DNA of 64,000 nucleotides, taken from a virus. Taxonomy: Duplodnaviria > Caudoviricetes. Of the stretch, positions 1,709-20,659 are shown piece by piece. The stretch covers positions 1,621-65,620 of the IMG/VR virus record IMGVR_UViG_3300019487_000029; one strand, given 5' to 3'. The notes beneath the pieces are model-generated. The model saw only the letters and a program-made list of their open reading frames with translations. It searched no databases and had not been told where the DNA came from. The first letter of the stretch is position 1, and each line of letters starts with the position of its first letter. The position numbers were made by a program, and so were the translations under genes.

Positions 1709-1730
1709 GTAATTTAAGTCCTGTAATTAG
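1709..1730 (+). repeat. 22-bp palindrome, site 1
   Basis: GTAATTTAAG-TC-CTGTAATTAG. Confidence 0.9.
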
Positions 1731-1919
1731 TCCCAAAAGCCAATTTTCGCAAAATACCTATATCCCATATGGAGCATATTGGTATGTGCTATTGGGGATA
1801 TAGGTATGGAGGATGGAAATAAAATCAGGGCAGGGGAGGCACATAGTTATTATAACATACTTAAAAACAGATGTCAAATAAAAAGTGAAGAAATATATTT
1901 CTTCACATATTTATGGGAT

Positions 1920-2372
1920 ATGAAGAATTGCAAGTATTGTGGAAATCCGTGTAAGAGTATGATAACTTGTCCTTGTGGGAAATGGGTAGAAGAGCGTGGA
2001 AAGTATCAGAGGTCTAAGGCGAAGCGGTTATATTGGAAACAGCCATTTCGGAGGATGCTCAAGGTAATGGTTACGAATAATCGCCAGAGGTCGCTTAGAG
2101 ACCTTCCATTTGCCATTAGAGCGGTTGACTTGGCATTATTGGCCAAGAGGCAGAAAATGCTTTGTGCATTGACCGGGAGGCGTCTGACGAACGAGAACAT
2201 ATCTCCTGACCATATCATACCGATTTCCAAGGGCGGGACACATGACATAGGGAATATCCGTTTAGTGGACAGGGATGCCAACATTGCTCGAGCATCATTA
2301 TCTGATGAGGATTTCTTGAGGTTATGTAGGGATGTTGTAAAAACTCTTGACAAAGGGGATGGGGGTTGGTAA
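1920..2372 (+). CDS. HNH endonuclease
   Basis: CALTG; PDHIIPISKGGTHDIGNIRLV; TATTTAT just upstream of ATG. Confidence 0.85.
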   Translation: MKNCKYCGNPCKSMITCPCGKWVEERGKYQRSKAKRLYWKQPFRRMLKVMVTNNRQRSLRDLPFAIRAVDLALLAKRQKMLCALTGRRLTNENISPDHIIPISKGGTHDIGNIRLVDRDANIARASLSDEDFLRLCRDVVKTLDKGDGGW

Positions 2373-2453
2373 AGTGAAGATGGAATAAGTCATAATAAAA
2401 ACATTGTTGATAAAATAACGGAAGTTGCTTCCAAAGTTGCCGATGCTCAAAAA

Positions 2454-2762
2454 ATGATGGGAGATTATGACCATGTATTTGAGATGGTATGTGATCCCAA
2501 ATCCATACCTGTAGAGCCTTTGGTTTTCTTTACTAGCGATTCTCATATAGGACAATCAGTTGACCATATTCAACCTATAAAAACGGTTGTACGGCATCCG
2601 GGGGTTAAGGTGGAGTATCCTTGTGTATTTCAGTCGAAGCCTAATGGGGTGATGTACAAGTTGAAGATTCCCAAGTCATTTCCGCCAGCGATAGAGTTGC
2701 CGAGTTCGGCGTTTGGGAAGATGGTGATGAAAAAGATTCAGGACTTAAAAAAAGTCTCTTGA
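2454..2762 (+). CDS. Hypothetical protein
   Basis: ORF downstream of TTGACA promoter at about 2347. Confidence 0.5.
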   Translation: MMGDYDHVFEMVCDPKSIPVEPLVFFTSDSHIGQSVDHIQPIKTVVRHPGVKVEYPCVFQSKPNGVMYKLKIPKSFPPAIELPSSAFGKMVMKKIQDLKKVS

Positions 2763-2965
2763 CACTTTCTATAGAGTAGGTAAGGTAAGATGTGGATATA
2801 TGGATACGTTTCATGTAACAATGAAAAGCCCGAAGGGGATTGAGAAGTTGTTTACTGGTGTGGCTGATTCTTTTGAAGAGATTCGGAAGGATGCCGAGCG
2901 GGAGTATCCACGTCATGTGATTACGGAGATTGAGAATGCTACCACGGGTGAGACAAAGGAATTTC

Positions 2966-3772
2966 GTGAATAAATCATTTTTGAAGTGGGCGGGAGGCAA
3001 GAGTTTGCTATTCCCTCAGATTATGGCTTTGGTGCCGCCCGATGAACGCAAGGGGGCATTCATTGAGCCTTTTGTGGGGTCGGGTGTGGTAGCCTTGAAT
3101 GCACCATTTGAGCGAATCGTCATCAATGACACCAATGAGGGATTGATGCTTCTGTGGACTGAACTCAAATGGGGTCAAGAGGACTTCATCGAAGAGTGCC
3201 GTGAGTTATTCACCGGCGAGTTCAATAATCAGGTTTCTTTCCAAACCATTCGGGCATCCTTCAACAAGCAGCCATGTGGCAAGTACTTTTTATACCTCAA
3301 CCGTCATTGTTTCAATGGGTTATGTCGCTTTAACCTGAAGGGTGAATTCAATGTCCCCTTCGGCAAGTATGACAAGCCCTATTTCCCGGAGAAGGAACTG
3401 AGGGAAGCTCTTTTGGTCTTGAAGAAGACCAGAATGTACCAATTGGACTTTGGGGATATGATGAACATGGCGGAAGAGGGCGACGTGGTTTACTGTGACC
3501 CGCCTTACTTGCCGCTGTCGGACACTTCCAACTTCACGGCTTATTCCAAGGGTGGGTTCTCTATGGATGATCAAGTGAGATTGGTTGACCGTGCTTTGCG
3601 GTTGCGTGACCGTGGGGCAACTGTGATTATTTCCAACAATGACACGCCTTTGGCACGGAATCTGTATAAAAAGGCTGATCACATTCATTTTCTTCAGGTC
3701 GCCAAGCGGATTTCCTGCAAGGCTGATGGACGGAAGAAGTCGGGGGAATTGATGGCGGTGTACCGTCCTTGA
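2966..3772 (+). CDS. dam: DNA adenine methyltransferase (Dam/D12 family)
   Basis: KWAGGK, EPFVGSG, FNGLCRFN..GEFNVPFG, DPPY. Confidence 0.92.
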   Translation: MNKSFLKWAGGKSLLFPQIMALVPPDERKGAFIEPFVGSGVVALNAPFERIVINDTNEGLMLLWTELKWGQEDFIEECRELFTGEFNNQVSFQTIRASFNKQPCGKYFLYLNRHCFNGLCRFNLKGEFNVPFGKYDKPYFPEKELREALLVLKKTRMYQLDFGDMMNMAEEGDVVYCDPPYLPLSDTSNFTAYSKGGFSMDDQVRLVDRALRLRDRGATVIISNNDTPLARNLYKKADHIHFLQVAKRISCKADGRKKSGELMAVYRP

Positions 3773-3996
3773 AGCTTATGTTGTGCCAAGATGATAGTTG
3801 TGACATGAGTCACTGCACGGGTTGTGGTGCTCACATGATGGGTGCCCATTTACCGTTGGGTTCTATTTGCGACAGTTGCAAGGAATCCATTGGGAGTGAG
3901 ATGGACCGCTATTCAGAGGCGGCATCTGTCATTATGCAGTATGAAAAAGGTTTAGAAAAAGCCTTGACTACTCGTTCGGGTAGTGTAAGGTAAGAC

Positions 3997-4230
3997 ATGA
4001 ACGCAACAACTGAACCGCCTCGTCAAACGAATTTCAAATGCCCGATCTGCGATCACTTGATGGTCGCCCGTGATGGGCAAGTCTTGGACCCGAAGGATGG
4101 AGTCACTGTCTGGTGTGGGAATACGCATGGCTCCGCACCCGGTCAATGTTCAGCACAAGAAGTTGCTGGGCACGGCAACAATGAAAAAGCTGCTTACGAA
4201 ATCATTACTCAGAAATACAAGAAAGGCTGA
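3997..4230 (+). CDS. Small Zn-finger protein (Lar-like layout)
   Basis: CPIC...VWC...C..EKAA; own sigma70 promoter at about 3964. Confidence 0.5.
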   Translation: MNATTEPPRQTNFKCPICDHLMVARDGQVLDPKDGVTVWCGNTHGSAPGQCSAQEVAGHGNNEKAAYEIITQKYKKG

Positions 4231-4468
4231 ACTATGACCCCACTCCCTGTCAATCCAAACGTCCTTATCCTCGTTGATAAGGAAGGCAAAGTCCTTGAAG
4301 CTGCAACCAATGTGGCTCCCGACTTGAAGGTTACTGTCACGTCGGATTTGGCTGTTTTCAATGAGGAAGCCAAAGGCAAGACTTTCCGGCAGACCACACG
4401 GTCCAACTGATTCACCCCGCAGCGACCTCCACACGCAAGCCTCGGACGCAAGTCCGAGGCTTGTTGCT

Positions 4469-4963
4469 TTATATCTTGTGATTGGATTTAGCTCCCTCAT
4501 AGAAGAGTTTTAGTGCATTAAACATTGTAGTTTCGTCATGGATATTTTTTAACCAATTCATTCCTAAACAGCAAAGCACAATGTTGGTTTCATCATATCC
4601 AATTTTATAATCTATTCGATCAATTGACATAAGTAATGGGTCTTTAGAATAACTTGCTAATTTCATAGGAATTCCTGTGTAATAACATTTTCCGGCTTGA
4701 GATTCGTATATTTTTCTCAGTTCGGTCATTCCTATACTTTTAGTGCAGTTATTTCTATTTCGACAAGACACATGAAGTATTTTTGCCAATCGTGTTAAAC
4801 CTCCCGTCACAGATGTTTCATCCTTCAATGCATTTTTGGTCCATCTTTTAGATTCTAATTTGGAACATTTTTTACACCAAGAATATAATGTCCCTCGTCT
4901 TTTATTAACGTAAAATTCTGTAGAGTCTTTGTTGGTTTTACATTTGGCACAAATTTTCATCAA
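4469..4963 (-). CDS. HNH homing endonuclease
   Basis: CAKC..CKKC; GKCYYTG; SIDRID..GY..NIVLCC; paralog of 1073-1591. Confidence 0.85.
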   Translation of the reverse strand: MMKICAKCKTNKDSTEFYVNKRRGTLYSWCKKCSKLESKRWTKNALKDETSVTGGLTRLAKILHVSCRNRNNCTKSIGMTELRKIYESQAGKCYYTGIPMKLASYSKDPLLMSIDRIDYKIGYDETNIVLCCLGMNWLKNIHDETTMFNALKLFYEGAKSNHKI

Positions 4964-5079
4964 AGTATAAGTACATTCAGGATACTATAATGTACTCATA
5001 TAAAAACAAATAATTTTTGGTTTTTTAGATTTTCAAGTTTGTAATCTCTAATTCGATTATGATCATTTCGATTCGATTA

Positions 5080-5101
5080 CTAAATCTAGTCCTGTAATTA
5101 G
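5080..5101 (+). repeat. 22-bp palindrome, site 2
   Basis: CTAAATCTAG-TC-CTGTAATTAG; arms extend (TCGATTAC/GTAATTCGA). Confidence 0.9.
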
Positions 5102-5152
5102 TAATTCGAGATCAGGGAGAAATTCGAAATAAGTATTAAAAAGGGATGCGTA

Positions 5153-5392
5153 CAAAAAGAAGCGGCGGTTGAAGCAACCGAGTTTCGTATTTCTACGTCT
5201 CGGCTGGTATTCAACCGCCGTTATCTCTGTCGTCTGATTCCGTTGCCCGTTTTGGTATCGGTATGCTTTATACGGATTCTTCAGCAGCTACCGGGTCTGC
5301 TAAGGCTTCTCTTACAGAGATTCGTTAAATCTGGCTCACGTTTGCTTGCTGGTTTCCCAACGTCGCTACTTGGGTTTTGCCAAACTTAACTT
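5153..5392 (-). ncRNA. Putative structured ncRNA, about 240 nt
   Basis: Own promoter TTGACA(5421-26)-N16-TAAGGT and a terminator (5154-5220); no ORF of 60 aa or more. Confidence 0.6.
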
Positions 5393-5558
5393 GCGACAAC
5401 CTTACCACTTTCATGGCAGATGTCAAATTATTTTTTCAAAAACTTTGACAGCATCGGATTCAATATGGCAGTTGATCCGACAGACTGGAGATTTATTTTA
5501 CTGATATTTTCTACCTTGTCAAATTAAATCCCTCTTTTTATTTCAAAGAGGGATATTT

Positions 5559-5930
5559 ATGGGCATGAAATGTTTGTATTGTCAAGAAGAGTTTTCGCCT
5601 CGTCGAAGAGATCAAATTTATTGTAGAAAGCGATGTGGTAGTAGAGCAAGTGCATTACGAACCGGATCAAAAGAAAGAGCCGACAGACGATGTAGTTGGA
5701 AAAAGCAAGGAATTATTTTTACTTTTGAAGAATATCTAAAAATGATGGCGGTTCAAAAGCAAAAATGTAAAATTTGTCAAGGTCAATTTTCATCTTTAGA
5801 AGTTGATCATGATCATGTGTCGGGCAAAGTCCGAGGATTGCTCTGTGGAAATTGTAATCGGGGAATTGGGCATTTCAAAGATAATACCAAATCTTTGCAA
5901 CGAGCAATTTATTATCTAAAAAAAGAATGA
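5559..5930 (+). CDS. Endonuclease VII-like HNH protein
   Basis: CKIC..VDHDHVSGKVRGLLCGNCNRGIG. Confidence 0.9.
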   Translation: MGMKCLYCQEEFSPRRRDQIYCRKRCGSRASALRTGSKERADRRCSWKKQGIIFTFEEYLKMMAVQKQKCKICQGQFSSLEVDHDHVSGKVRGLLCGNCNRGIGHFKDNTKSLQRAIYYLKKE

Positions 5931-5973
5931 AGGCGTCCTCAACGGACGCCTTCATTCCGGGTTGGCCGGTGAC

Positions 5974-6399
5974 TTAGGCAGTCACGGGAGCCGCTTCAGT
6001 GGCGGGAGCAGCTTCGGGAGCCTGGGCGATCACGGGAGCAGCGGGAGCAAGCAGAGCCGCTTTCGTCGCTTCATAGTCCGCCGTGGGCTTCGCCGGGGCG
6101 ATGGAAACGCTGACCTTGGACTTGATGGCAGTCTTCAGAGCGTTCATCTTGGACCGGCGGATGTACACGAACGTCTTGCGACCCAAGCCCTTCTTGGAAT
6201 TCGACTCACGGGTTTCGTCCTTCACGAGAACGATTTCCGACTTGCCTTTGCGGGCGAAATCCCGCTTGAGGAACTTGCGAAGCGTCAACGGTGTGACGTG
6301 CTCGTTCGCCTCGACCAGATCGGCGAAGGTGAACTTTCGGCTGGGGATGCTGATCTCAGCCATTGGACGACCGGGACCACGTTGCGATTTGTTTTTCAT
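5974..6399 (-). CDS. Basic, probable winged-HTH DNA-binding protein with Ala/Pro tail
   Basis: FTFADL..VTPLTLRKFL...GRKTFVY; two upstream TTGACA promoters. Confidence 0.6.
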   Translation of the reverse strand: MKNKSQRGPGRPMAEISIPSRKFTFADLVEANEHVTPLTLRKFLKRDFARKGKSEIVLVKDETRESNSKKGLGRKTFVYIRRSKMNALKTAIKSKVSVSIAPAKPTADYEATKAALLAPAAPVIAQAPEAAPATEAAPVTA

Positions 6400-6596
6400 G
6401 CTGTTTGTTGTGTTTGTTGTTTACTGACGTTACGAGATGAATATATCCGATCCCGTATGATTGTCAAATTCTTTTTGCACTTTTTTATCAGTTGCGAATT
6501 TAGACTTAATAATCACGGCGGGACTATATCTATCTACGCAAAAATGTCAACAAGTATTTTCAAAATCTTTTGAAGAGGAGACCACATCCGGCCAAG

Positions 6597-6618
6597 GTAA
6601 GTACAGCCCTGTAATTAG
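6597..6618 (+). repeat. 22-bp palindrome, site 3
   Basis: GTAAGTACAG-CC-CTGTAATTAG. Confidence 0.9.
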
Positions 6619-6714
6619 TCCGGCCAGCAGGACCACGGAGATGTGGATGTTGGGGTAGAAAAGCAAAAACCCCCGCAAAGCGAGGGTTCTTGACGAGATG
6701 TGAGGAGGACCAGC

Positions 6715-6957
6715 TTAGGTCTGGCTGGCTACGGGTGTCTTGGCCGGAAGCCCAATCTTGCCCATGAACTTCACTTCCTTGAAGAGAAAGGTCTTGATTG
6801 ATGTCCGATTGGAGGCTTGATCCCAATGTTCACCAACGACGTAGTTGGCAGCGGAGGTTGGGTCTTGACCATAGCCAATGCAGAGGAATTGGGTATTGGC
6901 GTCGATTTGGGTGACGAAGCATTGACCGATGATGGTGTTTGGATCGATGTGCAGCAT
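6715..6957 (-). CDS. Hypothetical protein
   Basis: Last ORF of a minus-strand operon, terminator at about 6660-6690. Confidence 0.6.
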   Translation of the reverse strand: MLHIDPNTIIGQCFVTQIDANTQFLCIGYGQDPTSAANYVVGEHWDQASNRTSIKTFLFKEVKFMGKIGLPAKTPVASQT

Positions 6958-6978
6958 AACTGTTCTTCTTGTTGTTGT

Positions 6979-7440
6979 TTAGGGGTTGGGGAGACCGTCG
7001 CCGATTTTTGCTACCTCGGCAACGAAATCACTATAAATCTTGTTGTTGGTGTTCCCATTCTTCTCCATCTCTTCAATCTCTTTGCGTCGCCATGTGGGGA
7101 GTTTGTCCAATACGATTTGGCGGGCACGCACGTATGGATTCTTGTCAGTGGAAGCCAACTTATCCTTCAGCTTCTCGGAATCATCCTTCTTGGGGACCGA
7201 TGTCTTCTTGGCTTTCTTGGCGGCTTCTTCGGCTAGGATTTCAAATCCTTCAGCACAGAGAGCTTGAATCAGTTTGTCAACGGGGAGGTCGGGTGGACCA
7301 ACCATACCGCCTTCTTTCCGCAGTTGAGCCATGCGGTCAGTGTACTTCTTGAAATTGTCCTCGTTCTCCTCAGTTTTCTTCATAGACTTTCCCATAGCGT
7401 CCTCGCCGCCTATACCCACGACCCTTCGCCGGCCTCTCAA
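6979..7440 (-). CDS. Hypothetical protein
   Basis: ORF in operon, charged composition. Confidence 0.6.
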   Translation of the reverse strand: MRGRRRVVGIGGEDAMGKSMKKTEENEDNFKKYTDRMAQLRKEGGMVGPPDLPVDKLIQALCAEGFEILAEEAAKKAKKTSVPKKDDSEKLKDKLASTDKNPYVRARQIVLDKLPTWRRKEIEEMEKNGNTNNKIYSDFVAEVAKIGDGLPNP

Positions 7441-7534
7441 TCTTTGTCGGAGGAGGCGTAGGTTTGCGGATCGATTTGTAGATGGCGAGTTGCCCTTTCA
7501 TACTGAATAAATATCGCAGAGTTTACCCGAATTG

Positions 7535-8014
7535 TCAAACCTTCTTTAGAAATGAATTTCTTTCCGAGACTGCTTTTTTCAATGTTTCAAAAGTTCCAAC
7601 ATTGATTAAATCTCCCCGAATTGAAATTTGTACACGGTACTTTTTGTAAAAAGGATATTTTTTGGAATTGGTTGCGATGATGTATCGTGGAAGACCGCTT
7701 TTCTTTCCACGAATTCCACGGTTTTGATTACTCACCAAACGGGTTACAAACCGACAATTTGAGGGAGAATAATCACCGTCATTGTTAATACGGTCAATAC
7801 ATAGTGATTGTCTGTACCCGTTTAGAAGTGCCCATTTGATAAAGGATGTTGGTGAGATTGTCCATTGATGGCAAACGGCTATTCCTCGTTTTCCGTAATT
7901 GCGGAAATCCTTATCATCTTTGTTATAACAACGAGATAACATTCGTATCCATTTAACAAGTAGCGGATGCCACTTAAACTTTGATGTATAATTTTGTTGG
8001 TTTCCCTTTGACAT
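7535..8014 (-). CDS. HNH-AP2 type homing endonuclease
   Basis: MLSRCYN..YGKRGIAVC..W; IDRINNDGDYSPSNCRF; AP2-like C-terminus. Confidence 0.85.
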   Translation of the reverse strand: MSKGNQQNYTSKFKWHPLLVKWIRMLSRCYNKDDKDFRNYGKRGIAVCHQWTISPTSFIKWALLNGYRQSLCIDRINNDGDYSPSNCRFVTRLVSNQNRGIRGKKSGLPRYIIATNSKKYPFYKKYRVQISIRGDLINVGTFETLKKAVSERNSFLKKV

Positions 8015-8492
8015 TTCGTCTTTCCTCCCTTACAAATTTGATTTTGTTAGTACTCAAAGCATCTTTCATAAAAATAGATGCTGTAGCATATTGTATGCCA
8101 TTTTTTTCAGCCAGTTCGATGGTACTGAATTCACCGACTGGAACAACAACTGCCTTGGCTGGCTTGGCTTCCTCTTCCGCCGCACCGGCAGCTTCCTTGG
8201 TCAAGTCTTCATACGCCTTCATCGCACGAGCACGGTTATTATAGGACCATGCGATGAATCCGAACTGACTTGTCCCCGGATACTTTTCTTGATCATCCTC
8301 GGTGACAGTCTGGAAAACCTTGGTGCCCTTGGGGAGAATCTTGATGCGAAAGACTTCATAGTCCTTTGGAACCCCATTACGGGACCGCTCATAGATGGCG
8401 GTGGTTTCGCTTCGGGCAAGCTGAGTGTATGTGAGAGGGTCTGTTGAGAATCCACCCTCACCTGATACGAAAGTCTTTTCGAGTTTAATCAT
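7974..8492 (-). CDS. Hypothetical protein with C-terminal winged-HTH-like domain
   Basis: FSTIELAEKNGIQYATA...GKPTKLY. Confidence 0.55.
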   Translation of the reverse strand: MIKLEKTFVSGEGGFSTDPLTYTQLARSETTAIYERSRNGVPKDYEVFRIKILPKGTKVFQTVTEDDQEKYPGTSQFGFIAWSYNNRARAMKAYEDLTKEAAGAAEEEAKPAKAVVVPVGEFSTIELAEKNGIQYATASIFMKDALSTNKIKFVREERRNVKGKPTKLYIKV

Positions 8493-9012
8493 GTGTCCAT
8501 TCACCGAGGCACTTCAGAGTCTTCGGGTTGAAGTATGCAATCAGTTTACGATTACCGTGGCATTTGTCAAATACTACTTTCACATTGATTGGAGCACTGA
8601 CAGACCCCCATGCTTTCACCGAAGGATTGCGGCGATGTTCATTGAGCACGAGATCGATAAACCCCGCAACTTTAGTCTTGAGTTCCCGCACAAGGAACAT
8701 CCGTATTTTCCCCGTGCGATCCTTTACGAGATAGTACTCAGCCTTGCACCGCATATCCCTACCTGTAATTCCCCGATCAATGTCCTTCATGCACTCAAAG
8801 AGGACATCATCTCCACTCTCACGGAACTTGACCTGTACAGCAACCGTTGTGCCATCCCATTCCATCCACCCATCAATTTTGTCCTTGATGTCTTCCTCAT
8901 CTGTGGGTTCAGCAATCTTGATGCCAGCCTTCCGCAACACATCAAGTATTTGCTTCTCACCAAGTTTTCCTTGGATGACTCTGGCGTCGTAATCTTCACC
9001 ATTTAGCATCAT
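8485..9012 (-). CDS. PD-(D/E)XK-like nuclease
   Basis: GEKQI..DKIDGW..VQVKFR. Confidence 0.55.
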   Translation of the reverse strand: MMLNGEDYDARVIQGKLGEKQILDVLRKAGIKIAEPTDEEDIKDKIDGWMEWDGTTVAVQVKFRESGDDVLFECMKDIDRGITGRDMRCKAEYYLVKDRTGKIRMFLVRELKTKVAGFIDLVLNEHRRNPSVKAWGSVSAPINVKVVFDKCHGNRKLIAYFNPKTLKCLGEWTHD

Positions 9013-9039
9013 CCATACGCTACTCTCCTTTATTCAATT

Positions 9040-9100
9040 GTCAACAGTTAAAAAAAGATTTTTTGTCCATTGACATCTCTATAATAAAGGCTAGAGTGTG
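9040..9100. promoter_or_regulatory. Divergent sigma70 promoters
   Basis: TGTCAA at about 9040 (minus strand) and TTGACA at 9070 with TAGAGT. Confidence 0.7.
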
Positions 9101-9106
9101 TATGTT

Positions 9107-12606: not shown

Positions 12607-12628
12607 GTAAGTACATTCCTGTAATTAC
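12607..12628 (+). repeat. 22-bp palindrome, site 5
   Basis: GTAAGTACAT-TC-CTGTAATTAC. Confidence 0.9.
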
Positions 12629-12658
12629 TTTTGATGCTTAAACTTAATATGTATAAAC

Positions 12659-13117: not shown

Positions 13118-13373
13118 ATTCCCTTGAATTGATTTGACCATCAATAGTCAGAAGTCCCTGCTCCTTTGCCAGTTGCGTTGCCGCAAGGTAAGAGTAGGTG
13201 GTGCGATCACCGAATGAATTGCGTACGGGACCGAGGATCGCAAGCTTGTTCGTGTCCACTGGCTTCTTGTCCGTGACGCCCTTTCGCACGACGTTGAACA
13301 TGGTGCGGAAGGCATAAGGGAAGCTCGTGCAGTCAACTTTCTGCACACCGTTTTGAAAAATCCAATTGCTCAT
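13104..13373 (-). CDS. Hypothetical protein
   Basis: ORF with upstream promoter. Confidence 0.6.
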   Translation of the reverse strand: MSNWIFQNGVQKVDCTSFPYAFRTMFNVVRKGVTDKKPVDTNKLAILGPVRNSFGDRTTYSYLAATQLAKEQGLLTIDGQINSREFKKR

Positions 13374-13858
13374 GGAGGATACATTAGCAGAGTTGTCTCA
13401 CCGAGTCAACCATGATTTTTTCGCAAGTTGCTCCAAGAGCCGATTGTTGGCTTCCCATTGTTCAATGGTGATGCCCGTGATGATTTCAATGACGATTTCT
13501 TTCATGGTTTTCATAGTTGTTTCACCGAAGAACTTCTTTGGCCGGGGCATCCACGAATGTAAGGGAATCTCTGCCCTCGTCGAACCCTTCCGTTTTGATC
13601 AGACGGGCATGAACCCGCTCAATAGTGATCGGACGATTGGATTGGAAGACTGTTACGGTTGGTCCGCAGTTGTCAAAGTGAATAATGACGGTCTGCTTGA
13701 ACTTAAATCGTTTTCGTTTCATAATCCCCACGTTACATCTTTATAGAAACTCTGTCAAATGTTTTTTTCTTGTTGACAAAAGAATATGGAAGTGTAAATT
13801 GATTTCGTAACGAGAAGACACTTGACATTCTCCGAAGAACACGTAAAGTAACAACACT

Positions 13859-14098
13859 ATGAGCAAACAAAAGTACCCTCAAACGGCATCAGCTTCAACC
13901 ACTGGTGGGGTCGCACGGTCAACCAAGCGGCAACACTACTCACACGCCAAGGCGGATGCGAGAAAAGATCGCAAGCGTCTGGAAGCCCAGCTTGCCAGTG
14001 AAAAGGCGGCTCAGGTCAAGACCGCCCCGCTGACCAGTGAGCAGAAGGGTGCTAAGGTCGTGAAGAACGCCAAGGCTGCCGTCGCTGCGGCACACTAA
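13859..14098 (+). CDS. Small basic Ala/Lys-rich protein
   Basis: Downstream of tandem TTGACA promoters. Confidence 0.6.
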   Translation: MSKQKYPQTASASTTGGVARSTKRQHYSHAKADARKDRKRLEAQLASEKAAQVKTAPLTSEQKGAKVVKNAKAAVAAAH

Positions 14099-14200
14099 CA
14101 ACAATTTTGCCTCTCGTTCCCATTGCGACTACGTATCGAGGGAGCGGGCGTCTCTGAAAGACGTAACTGCGAAGGGTTTGGCAAACAGCTTTCAAACAAC

Positions 14201-14551
14201 ATGAAGATCACTATCAGCAAAGCCGAAATGCTCCGAGTCATGTCGGAACACTTTCGTATCGAAGTCACCGAAGTTGTTATCTCCAAAAACAACAGTGCCG
14301 TGGTGGATAACTTCCTCACCAAGATGGCAAAGGAGATGGGAACTACCAACATCACCGAAGGAATGTTGGGTGGTGCGAACAAAATCCCCGCTATCAAAGC
14401 CCTCCGCACTGTCACCAGCTACGGACTGGCTGAGGCAAAGTGGGCGGTGGAGAATTGGGGTGCCTACATCAAGGCATACACCAAATTCGGACGCCAGCCC
14501 AAGATTGAAGGGAACTGCATGTCCTACGGAGAAGGACCGAAGCTCCTGTAA
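14201..14551 (+). CDS. Protein with ribosomal bL12 C-terminal-domain-like motif
   Basis: NKIPAIKALRTVTSYGLAEAKWAVE resembles the L7/L12 CTD. Confidence 0.7.
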   Translation: MKITISKAEMLRVMSEHFRIEVTEVVISKNNSAVVDNFLTKMAKEMGTTNITEGMLGGANKIPAIKALRTVTSYGLAEAKWAVENWGAYIKAYTKFGRQPKIEGNCMSYGEGPKLL

Positions 14552-14691
14552 ATTTGGCTGTCAAGTCGTTGTAGCCTAAAGGCTCCGCTTCAGTCATAAG
14601 ACGCCCTCGCTCGACCGTTTCGAGCGGGGGTTTCTGCTTTTCACCGATCATCTTTCCCAATCACCGAACTCCCATCCATTGCCCGGCCTAA

Positions 14692-14713
14692 GTAATTGTA
14701 GTGCTGTAATTAG
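14692..14713 (+). repeat. 22-bp palindrome, site 6
   Basis: GTAATTGTAG-TG-CTGTAATTAG. Confidence 0.9.
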
Positions 14714-14793
14714 TAATGGCCGGGAGGTCCAGACATCTCGGCTCTTCAGAAAATTTCCTCTTGACTTTTTTCTGCCTAACATATAGTTCAGCA

Positions 14794-15030
14794 ATGAATA
14801 AATGGAAATTCGTATCTTTGACGGAAGGCTTTCAGCCGATCCCCGTTGACTCCTTCATGGAGGCTTGGGATGCGATGTTCAAGTGGATCAAGGATGCCGT
14901 TGCCCAAGGTCAGCTTGATTGGCAAATCTTGGAGACTGCCATTTGGATTGAACAACCAAACAGCAAACCACTGTTCTTTTATGACGCTCGTGATCGGGCG
15001 ATTGACAACGGATGGACTGAACCCAAATAA
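14794..15030 (+). CDS. Hypothetical protein
   Basis: After TTGACT promoter at 14761. Confidence 0.6.
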   Translation: MNKWKFVSLTEGFQPIPVDSFMEAWDAMFKWIKDAVAQGQLDWQILETAIWIEQPNSKPLFFYDARDRAIDNGWTEPK

Positions 15031-15039
15031 CTTTTCAAC

Positions 15040-15459
15040 ATGAAATACACCTACCGCTACGACATTCAAGGCAATGGAGATAGCCATTACCTTCACATGT
15101 ATTTTGATCGCCCACTCGCCGCCTCGTCTTTCTATCGTCACAACGATGATGTCAGTCCGAAGGATCGGGAACTCAGCGACGCCATTGCTCACACTCCCAA
15201 TGTCCTCTGCAACGACCAGTTCGCAGGTACGGGTGAGTTGAGTGGGGCTTCTGCGGAACTCATTCACGTTGATGGCACGGCGTTGACGGTCAAAATCGTT
15301 CCTCACCGAAACGTACCCGAAATTGCCAAACAGATTGTCAAGAAGGTGCAGCGTCGTTTGGCTCCCAAAGAATCTCGCCGCCGAGTCCTCAAAGCGACGT
15401 TGGACGCTTATGTGAAGCGTCTCAACGAACGCACTTACGGCAAACCCCGTAATACGTAA
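15040..15459 (+). CDS. Hypothetical protein
   Basis: ORF followed by terminator. Confidence 0.65.
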   Translation: MKYTYRYDIQGNGDSHYLHMYFDRPLAASSFYRHNDDVSPKDRELSDAIAHTPNVLCNDQFAGTGELSGASAELIHVDGTALTVKIVPHRNVPEIAKQIVKKVQRRLAPKESRRRVLKATLDAYVKRLNERTYGKPRNT

Positions 15460-15568
15460 GCCTCTCCGTCAGGAGTTAAGGCAAGTCGTATCCACGAAAG
15501 CCCGGAGCAATCCGGGCTTTTTGCTTTTCACCGATCATCACCGAACTCGTGGTCCTCTTCCGGGCAGG

Positions 15569-15590
15569 GGAATTATAGTCCTGTAATTAG
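15569..15590 (+). repeat. 22-bp palindrome, site 7
   Basis: GGAATTATAG-TC-CTGTAATTAG. Confidence 0.9.
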
Positions 15591-15672
15591 TCTCCTGAAA
15601 AGCCGGGTGATGTCGAGGTCTCGAAGTGAAATAGTTGTTGACAAAAGTATAATAAAGACTAGAGTGAAATAC

Positions 15673-16632
15673 ATGAGTCATGCTATTTTAAGAATGTTTC
15701 AAGGGGCAATCGCCTTTATCGGACCTGAAACGGAGGTTCGTCGGGCAGACTTACTTGTCAACAAGTGGGATGCCATTCACACCAAGGTACAAACCATCTT
15801 TGATGATGGGCTGACCTATTGCAATCACTGCATGAGTCTGTACATCCAACACGATGCTTCGTGCTGGCGTGATATGGAAGACTTGTTTCGTCGCACCAAA
15901 CTTCAAGGCAAGACTGCGAAGACTATTCGGAAGAAAGCCGATTACTTCACCAAGCACTTTTGGAAAGTCCTTCATCGTCACCCCGATCTCGCCAAGATCG
16001 AGCGAGAAAACGATTTCAAGAATGGCACGCCTTGGGATGAACAGTTTCGGGTTGACTCTTCGCTCTGCATCTGGTGGATGAATTACTACTTCGCCACACA
16101 CGATGCGGAACTCAACGTCCCTCCCTTTCCTCTCTACACGGTGGAGGAAGATCATGCAAAAATCCTCGCTAATGCCAAGAAACTTGAACGGAGGATGAAA
16201 GGGAATCGCAAGGAACCCAAGTTCACCATCAAGGCAAGTGAGGTAAAGTTGGAAGTTCAAGCTCGTGATGACTGTTGGATCAAGTTTGAATGGGATGACC
16301 TTTCCAATGCGTGTGAATTGATGGGCTTGTTTGAAACGAGCGGGTGGACTGCACGGGATGGAACTCATTACGACCATACCAAAGCTCCTCGGAAGAAACT
16401 CAACAAGATGTTTCCTCATGCCGAGATTGAGTGCATGGATACGCCCTCAAATCTTTACGGGGACACGAACAATTGGTTTTACGTGTACTTCCATTGGAAG
16501 CCCGAACACTTCTCGTGGGCACAAGTCCGTAAAGCTGAACGGGCTATGAAAGAACTCGTGGTGCCCCGCCTCGGCACGTTTCGTCCGGCAGACAAGCCCA
16601 AGAAATATCAAGTGGTGACGTTGAAATTCTAA
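15673..16632 (+). CDS. Hypothetical protein
   Basis: Long ORF after TTGACA(15638)-N16-TAGAGT. Confidence 0.75.
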   Translation: MSHAILRMFQGAIAFIGPETEVRRADLLVNKWDAIHTKVQTIFDDGLTYCNHCMSLYIQHDASCWRDMEDLFRRTKLQGKTAKTIRKKADYFTKHFWKVLHRHPDLAKIERENDFKNGTPWDEQFRVDSSLCIWWMNYYFATHDAELNVPPFPLYTVEEDHAKILANAKKLERRMKGNRKEPKFTIKASEVKLEVQARDDCWIKFEWDDLSNACELMGLFETSGWTARDGTHYDHTKAPRKKLNKMFPHAEIECMDTPSNLYGDTNNWFYVYFHWKPEHFSWAQVRKAERAMKELVVPRLGTFRPADKPKKYQVVTLKF

Positions 16633-16667
16633 TTGACAAAAGGATACAAAAGGCATACTGTCACTCC

Positions 16668-16967
16668 ATGAACGCAGCCAAAAAAGCAAAGATGGATAAA
16701 GAGCTTGAGGTAGTGGCTTTGGAAGCCGTGTTGAAGCACAAGAAGTCCAAGCTCTACGCCAAAGTTAATCACGAGGACAATTTCTCCTTGGTCATGGCTC
16801 CGGTGGCTCGTGATGCCATTATGGAGGAACTCGGCTTGCTGGATACCGCCGATGACGTGGACTGGATCAATGAAATGTGCCGCAAGCCGTATGGCAAGTC
16901 CGTTGACTATCTCGATGCTTTCGCCCGCAATGTCAGTCGCACTGCATATCAACAACTCAGAGCATGA
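16668..16967 (+). CDS. Hypothetical protein
   Basis: After TTGACA at 16633. Confidence 0.65.
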   Translation: MNAAKKAKMDKELEVVALEAVLKHKKSKLYAKVNHEDNFSLVMAPVARDAIMEELGLLDTADDVDWINEMCRKPYGKSVDYLDAFARNVSRTAYQQLRA

Positions 16968-17653
16968 AACTTTCCTTCAAACAACTTGAAAAGCGGTTCA
17001 CCCCAATGCCAACGTATCGGGTGAACATCCCGTGGGATCACCTTGAGGAGAATTTGCAGCGGTACATTGACCGTGGTTCGAACGGCACTGCTGCACTTGA
17101 TTTGGAACCCGACTTCCAACGTGAGCACGTATGGACTCCTGAGCAGCAAGTCAAGTATGTGGAGTACATCCTTTCGGGCGGCATGAGCGGAAGGGAAATC
17201 TACTTCAATTGCGTGGGGTGGATGAAGGATTGGAAGGGACCATTCGTGATTGTGGATGGGAAGCAGCGGCTTCATGCGGCTCGGCTCTTCATGGATAACA
17301 AACTTCAAGTGTTTGGAAAAAAGGTTGAAGTTAAACCTTGCATGTTAGCCCCGATGGGAGGAGAAGAAATCCAAGATGGGTACTTCCGCAAGGACATTGA
17401 GGGTCGCCTCTCACTCAACGCCCAATTCATCTTTGCGGTGAACGACCTGAAGACTCGTGCTGAAGTCCTCAAATGGTATTTGGAGATGAACACGGGTGGA
17501 ACTCCTCACACGGCAACGGAAATCGCACGGGTCAAGAATCTTCTCACGAGTGAAGCTCCTCAAATGCCTCACTGCCCCATGTGCAAAGGCGAAGTGGAAT
17601 TAGATGGAAGTGGTGGATACAACTGCTTCTTCTGCGGTCACTCCTTCAAGTAA
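16964..17653 (+). CDS. DUF262 (ParB/Srx-like, GmrSD N-terminal) protein with C-terminal Zn ribbon
   Basis: PDFQREHVW, IVDGKQRL; CPMC..CFFC. Confidence 0.8.
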   Translation: MKLSFKQLEKRFTPMPTYRVNIPWDHLEENLQRYIDRGSNGTAALDLEPDFQREHVWTPEQQVKYVEYILSGGMSGREIYFNCVGWMKDWKGPFVIVDGKQRLHAARLFMDNKLQVFGKKVEVKPCMLAPMGGEEIQDGYFRKDIEGRLSLNAQFIFAVNDLKTRAEVLKWYLEMNTGGTPHTATEIARVKNLLTSEAPQMPHCPMCKGEVELDGSGGYNCFFCGHSFK

Positions 17654-17746
17654 AATCACCGAATTCACCGATCAGAAGCCCGGATTTCTCCGGGCTTTTT
17701 TGTTTTTCACCGACCAGAAAGCCCGGACATTTGATGTCCGGCTGGA

Positions 17747-17768
17747 GGAATTACAGGACTAGAATTAG
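17747..17768 (-). repeat. 22-bp palindrome, site 8 (inverted)
   Basis: Reverse complement CTAATTCTAG-TC-CTGTAATTCC. Confidence 0.9.
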
Positions 17769-17793
17769 TATCGAGATGGCCGGCTCTTCGAAA

Positions 17794-18372
17794 TCACAAG
17801 AACATGTTGGGCAACTTGCCAAGGAAGTTCTCCAGACTTTGGAATGGACCGAGTGGCTGACCCTTTTTCTCTTTCTTATCAACCTTCGGCTCTCCCGAAG
17901 AGAGCTTGTAAGTCACTACACCATCTTGAATTACGAAGAGTGCTCGGAACGACCATCCTGTTATGTGGGTATTCTTCTTGAACCCCATTGCATCCATAGG
18001 AAGAGAACCAAACCTCTTCTTGTTGGTGGACTCAATGATCAGTTCGTATCCCTTGCAACAGTCCTTGGCTTTCAAGCACTCCAAGATGTCGCTCGGCAAA
18101 TCTTCTTTGGTAATGGATTGGCTTGGGAAGAACCTCTGAAGCACATCAAGGTATGTGAGAACTTTGATGTTGGGACTATGAAGTGGATCGAACCCCATCA
18201 CCGAAAGGTTACTGACAGTGGTCACATGAGGAATGACTTGCTCGAACGACGCCAACGCCTCCTCATAACTCCTCCATTTGTTGTCGGGGGAGACTCGTTC
18301 AGTTGGGAGGAGAGACTGACAGCCGGTGGTCAGAAGGACCAAGAGCATGAGGAGCGATAAAAGCGTCTTCAT
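17794..18372 (-). CDS. Putative lipoprotein
   Basis: Signal peptide with lipobox-like LTTGC. Confidence 0.75.
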   Translation of the reverse strand: MKTLLSLLMLLVLLTTGCQSLLPTERVSPDNKWRSYEEALASFEQVIPHVTTVSNLSVMGFDPLHSPNIKVLTYLDVLQRFFPSQSITKEDLPSDILECLKAKDCCKGYELIIESTNKKRFGSLPMDAMGFKKNTHITGWSFRALFVIQDGVVTYKLSSGEPKVDKKEKKGQPLGPFQSLENFLGKLPNMFL

Positions 18373-18443
18373 AGAATGGATTACCCCTAATAAATATAGT
18401 GAAATCAACCGTTTCACCGATCACCCGGCCTCCTGAAGAGCGA

Positions 18444-18465
18444 GTTTTTATAGTCCTGTAAATAC
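18444..18465 (+). repeat. 22-bp palindrome, site 9
   Basis: GTTTTTATAG-TC-CTGTAAATAC. Confidence 0.8.
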
Positions 18466-18657
18466 TAGCCGGGCGTGCTCTTCGGATGTCGGTCTCGAAC
18501 AGCCAGTTGTGAATGAATCTTTTAGGGGACTTCCCTAATACCTTGGGTAGTAGTGAGTACGAATAAAATAACTTTTGACTTTGTGAACACGAAAGGATAC
18601 AGTAATGACGTAACACTGAAACAGTGAACCGACAATAACAACCAAGAAACAAATCGA

Positions 18658-19242
18658 ATGAAATACACTCAAAAGTTCGCATGGCTCGCCGTGCTCGCCC
18701 TCACCCTCCTCGCCCTCCCCGCTTTCGCTGACAACGACAAGCATGACAAGTGTCACAAGAACCATCGTTGCGACAATCGTTGCCACGGCAACCATCACAA
18801 CAACCACGTCTGCAATGCTCAATGCCACTCGTGCTGCACCGTGACCTTCACCGTGACCAACACCGTCGTTCAGTTCCGCACGAACACGATTCACGTTCCC
18901 GTGTACGAAACGAACATCGTGACGGAAGTCGTGACCAACATCGTTGAGGCGTCTTTGGACGATGCGTCCGTCAACTACACGCTGCTTGAACGTCATCGCT
19001 ACGGCTTTTATGTGTGGAATGGCAAGCGTTGGGCGGCTAATGGTGCCATCATCAGTGCTTCCAATCAAGTCGTTCGCATCAGCGTTCCCGGTTATTTGGT
19101 CCGCCCCACTCCGCTCATTTGGCAGCTTGTGGACGTGACTGCGGGATTCCCTCGTACGGCAGTGCCCGCTGAGGAACCCGTTGCTCTACCGAACCTTTCC
19201 TTCGTGGCGATGAACGGTCGCCTCTATCGGGTGCTCCGCTGA
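18658..19242 (+). CDS. Secreted protein with His/Cys-rich segment and TN repeats
   Basis: Signal peptide ...LPAFA; HDKCHKNHRC...; VTNTVV/ETNIVT. Confidence 0.7.
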   Translation: MKYTQKFAWLAVLALTLLALPAFADNDKHDKCHKNHRCDNRCHGNHHNNHVCNAQCHSCCTVTFTVTNTVVQFRTNTIHVPVYETNIVTEVVTNIVEASLDDASVNYTLLERHRYGFYVWNGKRWAANGAIISASNQVVRISVPGYLVRPTPLIWQLVDVTAGFPRTAVPAEEPVALPNLSFVAMNGRLYRVLR

Positions 19243-19338
19243 TTCACCGATTCCCCTCCCCGCCCCCCCGCTCGCAAGAGTCGGGGGTTTTTTGTTTTTA
19301 TCCCTTGACATTATTATACAAAAGAGTAGATTGCTCAC

Positions 19339-19593
19339 ATGGCACAAGTAAAAATCAATTTCCCTAGTGACGCAGCGGCAAAGGAGTTTTGCACTTGGCT
19401 CTGTGAGCAAGGCGAGCAAGACTATTGGGGTTGGATGGAAATCTGCGATCCATCCAAGGAGAAGACGGTTGTCTTCAAGTATCACGCTCCATTGGACATG
19501 AGCTTCCCGCAAGACGACAAACGCAGATACAAAAACGCCACGTTCTGCCCTAACTTTGAAATCGGCACTAACCTTTACAACTTCACTGAATGA
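19339..19593 (+). CDS. Hypothetical protein
   Basis: After TTGACA at about 19305. Confidence 0.65.
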   Translation: MAQVKINFPSDAAAKEFCTWLCEQGEQDYWGWMEICDPSKEKTVVFKYHAPLDMSFPQDDKRRYKNATFCPNFEIGTNLYNFTE

Positions 19594-19784
19594 AAACCGC
19601 CCTTGCACTAACGGCTCAACGATTTGAATCTGCGAGTCATCGCACTGAAGAATACCTTTCATGGCATCGCAATTTCAAGCGAGCCTTCACCAAGTTCCTC
19701 ACCGAGAAAGGAGCCAAGGACATCTTCCGGGCAAGTAATTATAGTCCTGTAATTCCCTTGGCCGGACATCAGCCCGGTCAATGA
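19590..19784 (+). CDS. Hypothetical protein, possibly truncated at palindrome site 10
   Basis: ORF reads through the palindrome and its GC-rich flanks. Confidence 0.5.
   Translation: MKTALALTAQRFESASHRTEEYLSWHRNFKRAFTKFLTEKGAKDIFRASNYSPVIPLAGHQPGQ
19735..19756 (+). repeat. 22-bp palindrome, site 10
   Basis: GTAATTATAG-TC-CTGTAATTCC. Confidence 0.9.
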
Positions 19785-19817
19785 GGAACTCCTCCCCGAA
19801 CCAAGCGGATGGGACTT

Positions 19818-20408
19818 TTATCCCATAAAGCGATTCCCTTTTAGAATGTTTTCAATCTTCAGTTTCGGTTGAAGGTTTTTTAGTGCCCAACATTCTTTGA
19901 ATTGAGGGTCATCCGTGTCATCATATTTGAACCAAGACTTAGGAATTACGTGGTCAACCTGCCAATGACTACCATAATTTTCCCATGACATATCTCCGGA
20001 GAAGTGACTTTCAAGATGAGATGCTAATTCACCGATTGTATATCCAACCAAAGCTTCCCATTTCCTAAATCCCTTCATGGCTCTTAAAGCATGATACATA
20101 TTACCACGTAGATTATTGCTCAAGCGGTGCATCGGGTCTTCCATTGCCTTCCGATCCCACTTACGCTTCCATAAACGACGCTTCAATTTCATTTCGGGCG
20201 TATTCAAATATGCCTTAAACTTCATAGCGTTCTTTCGCTTCCATTGCTTACTTCTTTCGGCAATGTCTTTTTTTCTTATGGGATACTTACTTTTGGAGTA
20301 ATCACTACAACATGCTCTGCACCATACATGCAGACCATCTTTACCCCTCCCCCTGTAGAAATCAGTAGTCAATTTATCTAGTTGACACTTATTACATCGT
20401 CGATTCAT
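19818..20408 (-). CDS. HNH endonuclease
   Basis: CNKC..CRAC; MSWENYG.HWQVDHVIP..NLQP. Confidence 0.85.
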   Translation of the reverse strand: MNRRCNKCQLDKLTTDFYRGRGKDGLHVWCRACCSDYSKSKYPIRKKDIAERSKQWKRKNAMKFKAYLNTPEMKLKRRLWKRKWDRKAMEDPMHRLSNNLRGNMYHALRAMKGFRKWEALVGYTIGELASHLESHFSGDMSWENYGSHWQVDHVIPKSWFKYDDTDDPQFKECWALKNLQPKLKIENILKGNRFMG

Positions 20409-20443
20409 TCACTATAAATATACTCGTCTTCACCGAAACGAGA

Positions 20444-20465
20444 GTAATTACAGGACTAGAATTAG
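20444..20465 (-). repeat. 22-bp palindrome, site 11 (inverted)
   Basis: Reverse complement CTAATTCTAG-TC-CTGTAATTAC. Confidence 0.9.
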
Positions 20466-20659
20466 TCGATGGGCTTACTCTTCGAAGGAACAAGTTAATC
20501 ATGGGTTGTTTCACCGAACCTAATTATAGAAACTCCCTCGGCATCCTAGCATCAAGTATGCCAAGCTAACCAGAAATCTACTCTAGGGGTTTCCCTTAAT
20601 TTCAATCTTTTTATACTTTTCCGCTTGCGTGTAATTACAGGCAATGCGATAGTATCGGC

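Follow-up and report, generated by a model that had tools for sequence, protein, structure and literature searches.

A dispersed 22-bp dyad in the accessory region of a phage genome fragment is a putative protein-binding site in portable regulatory cassettes

We analyzed a 64,000-bp stretch of phage DNA (the window), which comprises bases 1621 to 65620 of the linear 65,620-base IMG/VR record IMGVR_UViG_3300019487_000029. Dispersed over the first 20.7 kb of the window are eleven copies of a 22-bp imperfect palindrome, here called the type-A dyad, and a related metagenomic contig, L262, carries dyads of equal length and different sequence. Our preferred reading, to which we give roughly even credence, is that the dyad is a putative binding site of a dimeric protein and the conserved core of portable regulatory cassettes that resemble the promoter early stem-loops (PeSLs) of T4-type phages. 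A preliminary description of this DNA had offered three models: crossover sites of a cassette-shuffling or inversion system, parS-like sites, and operators of a dimeric phage regulator. It was written without knowledge that the record is a fragment, that homing-endonuclease genes abound in the region, and that a second, strand-polar motif spans it. Of these, the operator model fits the evidence best, in that it agrees with a conserved block of ~24 bp, weak hairpins, retained symmetry, a diverged dyad in L262, and promoters at a favored distance from 5 of the 11 sites, although no regulator was found among the open reading frames (ORFs) scanned.

Results

Sequence and distribution of the dyad

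All eleven sites listed in the preliminary description are present (Table 1). Its consensus, searched with up to 3 mismatches, gave 15 strand-matches that correspond to ten sites (1709, 5080, 6597, 10232, 12607, 14692, 15569, 17747, 19735, and 20444); shuffled sequences are expected to give 0.01, and a total of 15 was not attained in any of 100 shuffles. Site 18444, the remaining one, departs from the consensus at 4 positions and keeps TATAGTCCTGTAAAT. The exact string CCTGTAATT occurs 12 times, always within 1720-20641, and is found neither elsewhere in the window nor in the 1,620 bases to its left. The copy at 8762-8770 is probably due to chance, since it lies inside an ORF and has no left arm. 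The earlier statement that the remaining 43 kb holds no site is true of the window but not genome-wide: CheckV puts the completeness of the record at 19%, so confinement of the dyads to 19 kb describes the fragment only.

Several other features held as first described. Nine full sites read on the plus strand and two (17747 and 20444) are inverted; the center, reported as usually TC, is TC in 8 of the 11 aligned sites; and two half-sites are real, one reading TAATTATAGA at 20521-20530 and the other being a collapsed copy at 20626-20641. Ten of the 11 dyads are intergenic by codon-usage calls and PHROG-supported genes, the exception being 19735. (Genes were called with a self-trained codon-usage model plus Pfam and PHROG family matches.) Most of the intervals are not self-contained single cassettes, as the spans of 0.7 to 3.6 kb usually hold several genes on both strands.

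The sites had been presented as palindromes, and the dyad is indeed there, but it is lopsided: the right half, CCTGTAATTA, is near-invariant (13.7 bits), whereas the left half is degenerate (10.3 bits). In an ungapped profile, the conserved block spans ~24 bp and holds 24 bits in total. Its flanks are near zero, which indicates that the core itself, and not general homology of the cassettes, is under selection. Each arm holds the self-complementary hexamer TAATTA, and the half-site TAATTAYAGG was matched 19 times, against 5.5 expected, at up to 1 mismatch. The two inverted copies, 17747 and 20444, agree at 21 of 22 positions.

Symmetry and folding

We examined pairing between the arms in an alignment of 14 dyads set in a 10-2-10 register. 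In register, 80% of cells pair, compared with 32 to 49% when the partner arm is slid, and 4 of the 10 pairs have changes on both sides. The covariation score was 0.155 versus 0.095 in shuffles and was matched by 9 of 500 shuffles. Fifteen stretches were also folded as single-stranded DNA with 29-nt flanks, namely, the 11 type-A dyads, the collapsed copy, a dyad of the second type found in the window (type B; see below), and two stretches of L262 centered ~2 nt off the dyad. Fold z-scores ranged from +1.1 to -2.0, with only 1 of the 15 at or below -2, and hairpin energies ranged from -2.7 to -12 kcal/mol as DNA. The predicted fold at 1709 omits the dyad entirely, and that at 15569 uses it poorly. 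We conclude that the symmetry of the dyad is selected and that stable folding is not evident. Symmetry that is kept despite weak folding favors recognition of duplex DNA by a symmetric protein over a hairpin.

Alternatively, the dyad might work as a folded nucleic acid, either as an RNA hairpin in processing or back-up termination or as a DNA cruciform or single-strand hairpin that marks a hotspot of recombination or replication. The retained symmetry, with its two-sided changes, would suit such an element. So would the GC-rich outer inverted repeats, whose sequence differs by site (14692, with CCCGGCC/GGCCGGG; 19735; 6597; and the L262 dyad at 980), and the position of the 17747 dyad within a 3' untranslated stretch, ahead of a minus-strand terminator. 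We nevertheless regard folding as unlikely. Predicted stability is low, the right arm is near-invariant while changes in the left arm are mostly uncompensated, and a G5 subfamily has a G-A mismatch at 3 sites. Moreover, dyads at tandem junctions come after one terminator and before the following promoter, a place in which RNA should be scarce, and the outer repeats at 10232 and 18444 are crossed and non-nested.

Anatomy of the junctions

According to the preliminary description, the sites often lie between a terminator and the next promoter. This is the case at four tandem junctions, three on the plus strand (10232, 14692, and 15569) and one on the minus strand (6597). The other seven dyads lie between divergent genes (1709, 5080, 12607, 18444, and 20444) or convergent genes (17747 and 19735). 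Along the transcribed strand of the tandem junctions, the order is an intrinsic terminator, the dyad, a sigma70-type promoter ~55-60 bp from the dyad center, and the gene; the terminator-to-promoter gap, which holds the dyad, is ~110-130 bp. At the three plus-strand junctions, the T-run of the terminator leads into TTTTCACCGATC (degenerate at 10232), followed after ~30-40 bp by the dyad and then by a TTGAC-type -35 element. The 6597 junction has the same order on its own strand, with a degenerate box.

Five of the 11 dyads have a scan-positive sigma70-like promoter that fires away from the dyad and whose -35 element starts 50-70 bp from the dyad center. The null expectation is 0.082 per random intergenic position, which gives a binomial P of ~0.001. 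At two more dyads, promoters at 55.5 and 58.5 bp narrowly miss the rules of the scan, and four dyads have none there; the promoters at 10232 and 14692 are among those that fail the scan criteria.

Two other roles were considered for elements of these junctions and rejected. The dyad itself is not a plausible promoter: a TATAGT -10-like hexamer is present in only 3 left arms, and the one at 6597 would fire into a convergent terminator. The string TTTTGCTTTT that follows terminators is not a T4 MotA box, there being no -10 element at the required distance. As a separate observation, several predicted start codons lie 6-7 nt past a -10 hexamer and have no Shine-Dalgarno sequence: ATG at 14794, 15673, and 19339, GTG at 12516 (minus strand), and ATG at 3965 of L262. 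The corresponding -10-to-start stretches are 14782-14796, 15660-15675, 19327-19341, 12516-12528 (minus strand), and 3953-3967 of L262. These starts suggest leaderless early mRNAs, common to the phage of the window and L262.

A relative carries a diverged dyad at aligned positions

L262, a metagenomic contig of 5,467 bp, was found with a 319-aa protein of the window (50% identity); its DUF262 protein is 66% identical to that of the window. It has no type-A dyad. Two 22-bp type-B dyads, also of 10-2-10 layout, are present in it: GTAAATATAC-TA-GGCTATTTAC at 980-1001 and GCAAATATACTACGTTATTTAC at 3851-3872. The latter aligns column for column with window dyad 15569. Upstream of both lie a conserved terminator and 17 identical bases, TTTTTGCTTTTCACCGA; the L262 copy is itself followed by a TTGACA promoter. 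The dyad at 980-1001 belongs to a minus-strand cassette (~880-1080) that aligns lengthwise with the 6597 cassette of the window (promoter, dyad, and terminator), the flanking genes being non-homologous. It also falls between homologs of window genes 12298-12516 and 13104-13373, an interval that in the window holds dyad 12607 and an HNH endonuclease gene and in L262 lacks the HNH gene.

Types A and B have the same length and axis. They differ in the central 8 bp and by a symmetric switch from T5/A18 to A5/T18, and this symmetry is as expected if a dimer had changed its specificity. The window itself holds one type-B copy, at 10317-10338, identical over 22 bp to L262 980-1001 (1 match, 0 expected). 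The blastn alignment around it is 96% over 26 bp, with flanks otherwise unaligned. An exact copy amid unrelated flanks points to selection as a recognition site or to recent transfer.

Gene order differs between the two sequences. In L262 it is DUF262 gene, dyad, and 319-aa gene; in the window it is dyad, 319-aa gene, 99-codon ORF, and DUF262 gene. The homolog of window gene 9323-9673 is relocated and inverted in L262. Such differences would suit shuffling through homology between repeated regulatory cassettes, of the kind known from PeSLs. Of the checks proposed in the preliminary description, comparison with a relative revealed a permuted order but breakpoints that are not all at dyads, and a search among the scanned ORFs of the record for a recombinase, ParA, or a ParB with a helix-turn-helix found none. 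Two other relatives, identified with a 1042-aa ORF, are fragments of 46-48 kb that are 21-23% complete (L118, 50% identity; L119, 37%). Neither has the type-A motif in its whole record, and no obvious repeated dyad was seen in 23 kb of each.

A strand-polar motif is co-extensive with the dyads

The sequence TCACCGA covers the same region as the dyads and raises a separate question, that of DNA-level polarity in a phage genome. Between 1054 and 20511 it occurs 30 times on the plus strand and once on the minus strand, where we estimate that ~1.3 would be expected per strand; the rest of the window has 5 and 4, which is background level. The string TTCACCGA occurs 19 times on the plus strand and never on the minus strand in this region, and 24 times in all against 2.85 expected. 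The polarity of TCACCGA persists inside genes of either orientation, at ~10:1. For 7 of the 11 dyads, copies are present 8-33 bp to the left, and tandem copies that follow terminators are frequent; L262 has 6 forward and no reverse copies (176-3818). Our guess is that TCACCGA is a polar signal at the DNA level.

Searches for a reading protein, a host box, and the dyad in other phages

We compared ORFs of the 65.6-kb record with Pfam (97 ORFs) and PHROGs (68 queries). The parS-like model did not hold up: there is no ParA and no helix-turn-helix (HTH)-bearing ParB among these ORFs, and the DUF262 protein (16964-17653), which had been cited in favor of that model, matches only the GmrSD N-terminal domain family, apart from weak matches to zinc-ribbon models; the L262 ortholog lacks the zinc ribbon.

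A broader version of that model has the dyads as loading sites for a ParB/Srx-fold protein, with the DUF262 protein as the candidate, that organizes or silences the region. The DUF262 gene does lie inside the array, and in L262 it is conserved next to a type-B dyad. There is also a precedent. RK2 carries ~12 OB sites for KorB. PMC11790492 presents KorB as a ParB-family CTPase clamp that loads at the palindromic OB and silences promoters at a distance. In addition to the domain content of the DUF262 protein, two points make such loading highly improbable here. None of 25 IMG/VR loci with DUF262 relatives has a comparable dispersed dyad, and no 11-mer reaches at least 4 copies in them except in a CRISPR (clustered regularly interspaced short palindromic repeat) array and a coding repeat. 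Furthermore, a lytic jumbo phage would have no obvious need for partition. As a side observation, one contig that encodes a DUF262 relative (IMGVR_UViG_3300033489_000001, L330; 411,618 bases) carries a CRISPR-like array at 16138-20493, with at least 34 repeats of ~36 nt that end in CTGTAATTGAAAC and are mostly spaced ~70 bp; its likeness to the dyad core is coincidental.

The dyad could also be the box of a global regulator of the host or a host-derived repeat captured by the phage. The promoters are of the host sigma70 type, so host factors act here, and the 22-bp length and layout resemble the boxes of CRP-type regulators. However, a degenerate 20-mer of the dyad, searched in 596 billion bases of species-representative genomes, gave 19 single matches versus ~17 by chance, in unrelated taxa and never more than one per genome, and L262 uses a different dyad at the aligned position. 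We rate a host box or a host-derived repeat as very unlikely.

In IMG/VR, scans with type-A patterns (at least 117 and at least 118 matching stretches) gave one match per contig among the matches listed. Most of those listed from the scan with at least 118, and 16 of 16 in another scan, were rejected as coding coincidences, without TCACCGA boxes; these encode N-F/Y-S-P-V-I, in many cases where a conserved ORF begins. The single match to the type-B pattern (L263), in 30%-GC coding DNA of a complete 59.6-kb phage, was likewise set aside as unrelated. A scan for the terminator tail plus box gave 38 matches, none with terminator context and none with more than 3 boxes.

Recombination and endonuclease genes

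The permuted gene order relative to L262 and the HNH gene beside 12607 in the window only support the crossover model only in a softer form; no recombinase was found among the ORFs scanned, and no assembled contig joins two dyads. In the version that we weighed, a site-specific recombinase whose gene lies in another part of the genome would use the dyads as crossover sites, either serine-type with a 2-bp core or attC-like, and would excise, insert, or invert gene cassettes. In its favor, besides the comparison with L262, are the 10-2-10 layout with a mostly asymmetric TC center, the largely uniform orientation (9:2) that is independent of gene direction, and the near identity of 17747 and 20444, the two inverted copies. 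The sequence type of the dyad is also lineage-specific, a trait that it shares with attC families in chromosomal integrons.

Other evidence leaves crossover sites doubtful. No recombinase family was detected among the scanned ORFs, which come from a 65.6-kb, ~19%-complete record. Degeneracy is much greater in the left arm than in the right, several many-gene intervals contain terminator-promoter junctions of their own without a dyad, and at least one breakpoint relative to L262 is off the dyads. Contigs point the same way. The sequence of the window is present in cave-metagenome run X1, which may be its source, and parts of it are present in run X2, from a different study, whose contigs cover only parts of the stretch at a depth of 2-3; no RNA run is listed as containing it. 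We aligned contigs of both runs to 1301-21200, and none joins two dyads; this is weak evidence, because rare variants are dropped from contigs. The sole joint, in X1, connects 1540 to 2078, skipping 537 bp (1541-2077) with a 4-base microhomology, and neither end is at a dyad. The contig with the joint has a depth of 8.9, compared with 10.7 for the contig that bears the segment. Loss of the segment takes away dyad 1709 together with the 5' ends of two endonuclease genes, 17 codons from 1073-1591 and 53 codons from the HNH gene 1920-2372. Judged by coordinates, the minus-strand reading frame of 1073-1591 continues without a stop across the 1540/2078 junction into ORF 2006-2353.

A wider proposal is that the dyads and TCACCGA boxes together form the cis-sites of a phage gene-cassette system, with attC-like or otherwise directional machinery for recombination or another DNA transaction supplied from the unsampled part of the genome and a dyad "code" for each lineage. 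Such machinery would bring in, remove, and rearrange accessory genes that carry their own expression signals. Polarity of both elements regardless of gene direction (9:2 for dyads and 30:1 for boxes), permuted gene order, and the switch of dyad type would be compatible with such a system, which we consider improbable.

The array holds eight free-standing endonuclease-like genes (HNH, endonuclease VII-like, and GIY-YIG) between 1073 and 20408, which raises the possibility that the dyads are targets or autoregulatory operators of free-standing homing endonucleases and spread with them. I-TevI, for example, autorepresses through an operator. Three paralogs with a zinc ribbon and an endonuclease VII-like domain (1073-1591, 4469-4963, and 37276-37800) share 30-39% identity, and the first two, which are 39% identical, both have a dyad 116-117 bp from their start. 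Compared with L262, the HNH gene 12659-13117 is an insertion right beside 12607, and the type-B dyad of the window lies just before a GIY-YIG gene. An endonuclease-like gene is the immediate neighbor of 6 of the 11 dyads; ~4 of 11 are estimated by chance, given 8 such genes among ~40, so the association is not established, and 5 dyads have no such neighbor. No dyad accompanies the seven endonuclease-like genes scanned elsewhere in the window (37276-37800, 44418-45158, and five within the tRNA cluster), and neither L262 dyad adjoins an endonuclease gene in 5.4 kb. We think it very unlikely that the dyads belong to the endonucleases.

Table 1. Dyads and associated elements in the window, with the arrangement of genes and signals at each
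Element	Position	Strand	Context
TCACCGA/TTCACCGA motif, extent	1053..20517	+	
Type-A dyad, GTAATTTAAGTCCTGTAATTAG	1709..1730	+	Between divergent endonuclease-like genes 1073-1591 (-) and 1920-2372 (+)
Type-A dyad	5080..5101	+	Between divergent endonuclease-like genes 4469-4963 (-) and 5559-5930 (+)
Type-A dyad	6597..6618	+	Minus-strand tandem junction; order on - strand: terminator 6692-6664, dyad, promoter 6550-6523 (TTGACA-16-TATAGT), gene 6399-5974
Type-A dyad	10232..10253	+	Plus-strand tandem junction; after terminator 10162-10183, upstream of GIY-YIG gene 10361-11062
Type-B dyad, GTAAATATACTAGGCTATTTAC (sole one in window)	10317..10338	+	22 bp before GIY-YIG start codon
Type-A dyad	12607..12628	+	Between divergent gene 12298-12516 (-) and HNH gene 12659-13117 (+)
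Type-A dyad	14692..14713	+	Plus-strand tandem junction; terminator 14603-14631, two TCACCGA boxes, stem CCCGGCC/GGCCGGG (7 bp, GC) around dyad; downstream TTGACT-15-TATAGT 14761-14787, then ATG 14794
Type-A dyad	15569..15590	+	Plus-strand tandem junction; terminator 15496-15521, two TCACCGA boxes, dyad, promoter 15638-15665, ATG 15673 (319-aa gene)
Type-A dyad, inverted	17747..17768	-	Between convergent DUF262 gene 16964-17653 (+) and gene 17794-18417 (-); terminators 17674-17699 (+) and 17741-17723 (-)
Type-A dyad, degenerate, GTTTTTATAGTCCTGTAAATAC	18444..18465	+	Between divergent genes; symmetric change, T4 paired with A19
Type-A dyad	19735..19756	+	Convergent junction; overlaps 3' end of 64-codon ORF 19590-19784
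Type-A dyad, inverted	20444..20465	-	35 bp upstream of start of endonuclease-like gene 19818-20408 (-)
Isolated half-site, TAATTATAGA	20521..20530	+	
Collapsed copy, GCGTGTAATTACAGGC	20626..20641	-	Two arms share one TAATTA; final array element

The genome fragment

We treat the record as a fragment of the genome of an uncultured jumbo phage because of its large-phage relatives, the fragmentary state of those relatives, its 22 tRNA genes, and its many homing-endonuclease-like genes. One protein of the window has distant matches, at 21-29% identity, to large vibrio, aeromonas, and Salicola phages. No T4 core gene was found in the 65.6 kb scanned, and T4-like vibrio and aeromonas phages were matched distantly by one protein only. 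A 341-aa ORF had no relative in IMG/VR, and neither of the two largest ORFs matched a sequence in the PDB.

The part of the window that carries the dyads (1-20.7 kb) holds ~40 small ORFs, mostly without a family match. Reassignment of TGA, TAG, or TAA gave no coherent gain in long ORFs, and stop-codon recoding was rejected as the cause of the many short ones. The 22 tRNA genes, all on the plus strand, form a cluster at 47111-61681 with HNH endonuclease genes interspersed; this cluster explains why the right half is poor in ORFs. The last bases of the record resemble a tRNA start. The conserved right part also encodes a ThiS/Urm1-like small protein (23942-24217) and an R2K-clade ATP-grasp protein (40652-41386), together with an ADP-ribosylglycohydrolase-like gene, an epimerase, an HD phosphohydrolase, a SpoU methylase, and a radical-SAM gene.

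Discussion

We propose that the dyad would be read by a dimeric, sequence-specific protein, probably phage-encoded, that contacts a strong half-site (TAATTACAGG) and a weaker one. Such a protein, when attached at the boundaries of units, would co-regulate or insulate neighboring early-type promoters, be it by activation, by repression, or by a block to read-through. The cassettes may double as portable homology patches, since they recur between unrelated genes, and genes would be exchanged, inserted, and reordered there, as in the PeSLs of T4-type phages. On this proposal, the cassettes would punctuate a hyperplastic accessory region that is rich in small genes and homing-endonuclease genes.

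Several observations weigh against a dimer-binding site in PeSL-like cassettes. The searches of the record (E <= 0.01) detected no HTH, ribbon-helix-helix, or other regulator, and the cognate factor is hypothetical, or it may be encoded in the unsampled ~80% of the genome or supplied by the host. A simple picture of one operator per promoter fails, because only 5 of the 11 dyads have a scan-positive promoter at the favored distance and the convergent pair, 17747 and 19735, has no partner promoter there (a match at 19678 lies inside an ORF). A cassette can do without the dyad, since at least one junction of terminator and promoter (19242|19339) lacks it. Dyad orientation (9 plus, 2 minus) tracks the genome strand and not transcription, such that even the minus-strand 6597 cassette has a plus-strand dyad, and a symmetric dimer site does not predict this. 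Symmetric changes and GC-rich outer repeats suit a hairpin or cruciform equally. Finally, at least one breakpoint relative to L262, immediately 5' of the DUF262 gene, falls away from the dyads, and the comparison is with one 5.4-kb relative at ~50-66% protein identity, in which breakpoints cannot be placed to the base.

Regulation and reshuffling of the accessory regions of giant phages are poorly understood outside the T4 group. What is new here is a PeSL-like linker with an additional, sharply defined 22-bp dyad whose sequence has diverged in a relative. Were a phage regulator to bind the dyad, the sites would make up a control circuit for accessory genes across the genome, and the change from type A to type B would show a coordinated change of the sites and, presumably, of their reader, which offers a handle for finding the regulator. 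If it is a recombination site instead, it would belong to a new phage cassette system. Either way, the dyad is a practical marker of module boundaries in this lineage.

Among known systems, the dyads resemble hix and gix sites, res site I, and attC sites in being imperfect inverted repeats with a 2-bp center and a mostly uniform orientation among small genes. Unlike for sites of serine recombinases and attC sites, no recombinase, attI, or Pc-like element was found in the record, and the dyad has no GTTRRRY core. The likeness to KorB OB and parS sites lies in a palindrome repeated on one replicon at varying distances from promoters, with a ParB-fold gene in the region. OB, however, is shorter and, in the account of PMC11790492, is bound by an HTH-bearing ParB-family CTPase together with KorA, and no such protein was found among the ORFs scanned in the record.

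The stoperators of cluster A mycobacteriophages, sites for the L5 repressor gp71, are described as asymmetric and bound by a monomeric repressor (PMC9283540). PMC6550527 portrays them as mostly one-way relative to transcription, with divergence of the motif tracking divergence of the repressor. Stoperators and the dyads share the dispersal of one short, lineage-specific site, mostly in short intergenic gaps (PMC6550527 for stoperators). Stoperators, however, serve lysogenic immunity. The sites of the window are dyads whose orientation is independent of transcription, neither a repressor nor an integrase was found among the ORFs scanned, and there is no sign of a temperate lifestyle. Stoperators and KorB operators serve here as functional analogies for dispersed sites read by a single protein.

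PeSLs, as characterized in PMC4122927 (Comeau et al. 2014) and PMC2839356 (Arbiol et al. 2010), are stem-loop terminators just upstream of sigma70-like early promoters in hyperplastic regions of T4-type phages; these reports link them to insertions, deletions, and exchanges between close relatives and note that they can form mini-circles. The cassettes of the window differ in their ~110-130 bp gap between terminator and promoter, with its discrete 22-bp dyad and TCACCGA boxes; for PeSLs no separate conserved palindrome is reported, and "palindrom" is absent from PMC2839356. In addition, 7 of the 11 dyads lie at divergent or convergent junctions, no T4 core gene was found in the 65.6 kb scanned, and the contigs of the two runs, in which rare molecules would be invisible, gave no evidence of mini-circles. 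What the cassettes have in common with PeSLs is their concentration in a hyperplastic region of small, mostly unknown genes. At the four tandem junctions they would also share with PeSLs the use of terminator and sigma70-promoter modules between small, non-essential genes, with unrelated neighbors and autonomous units, and possibly the association with differences in gene order.

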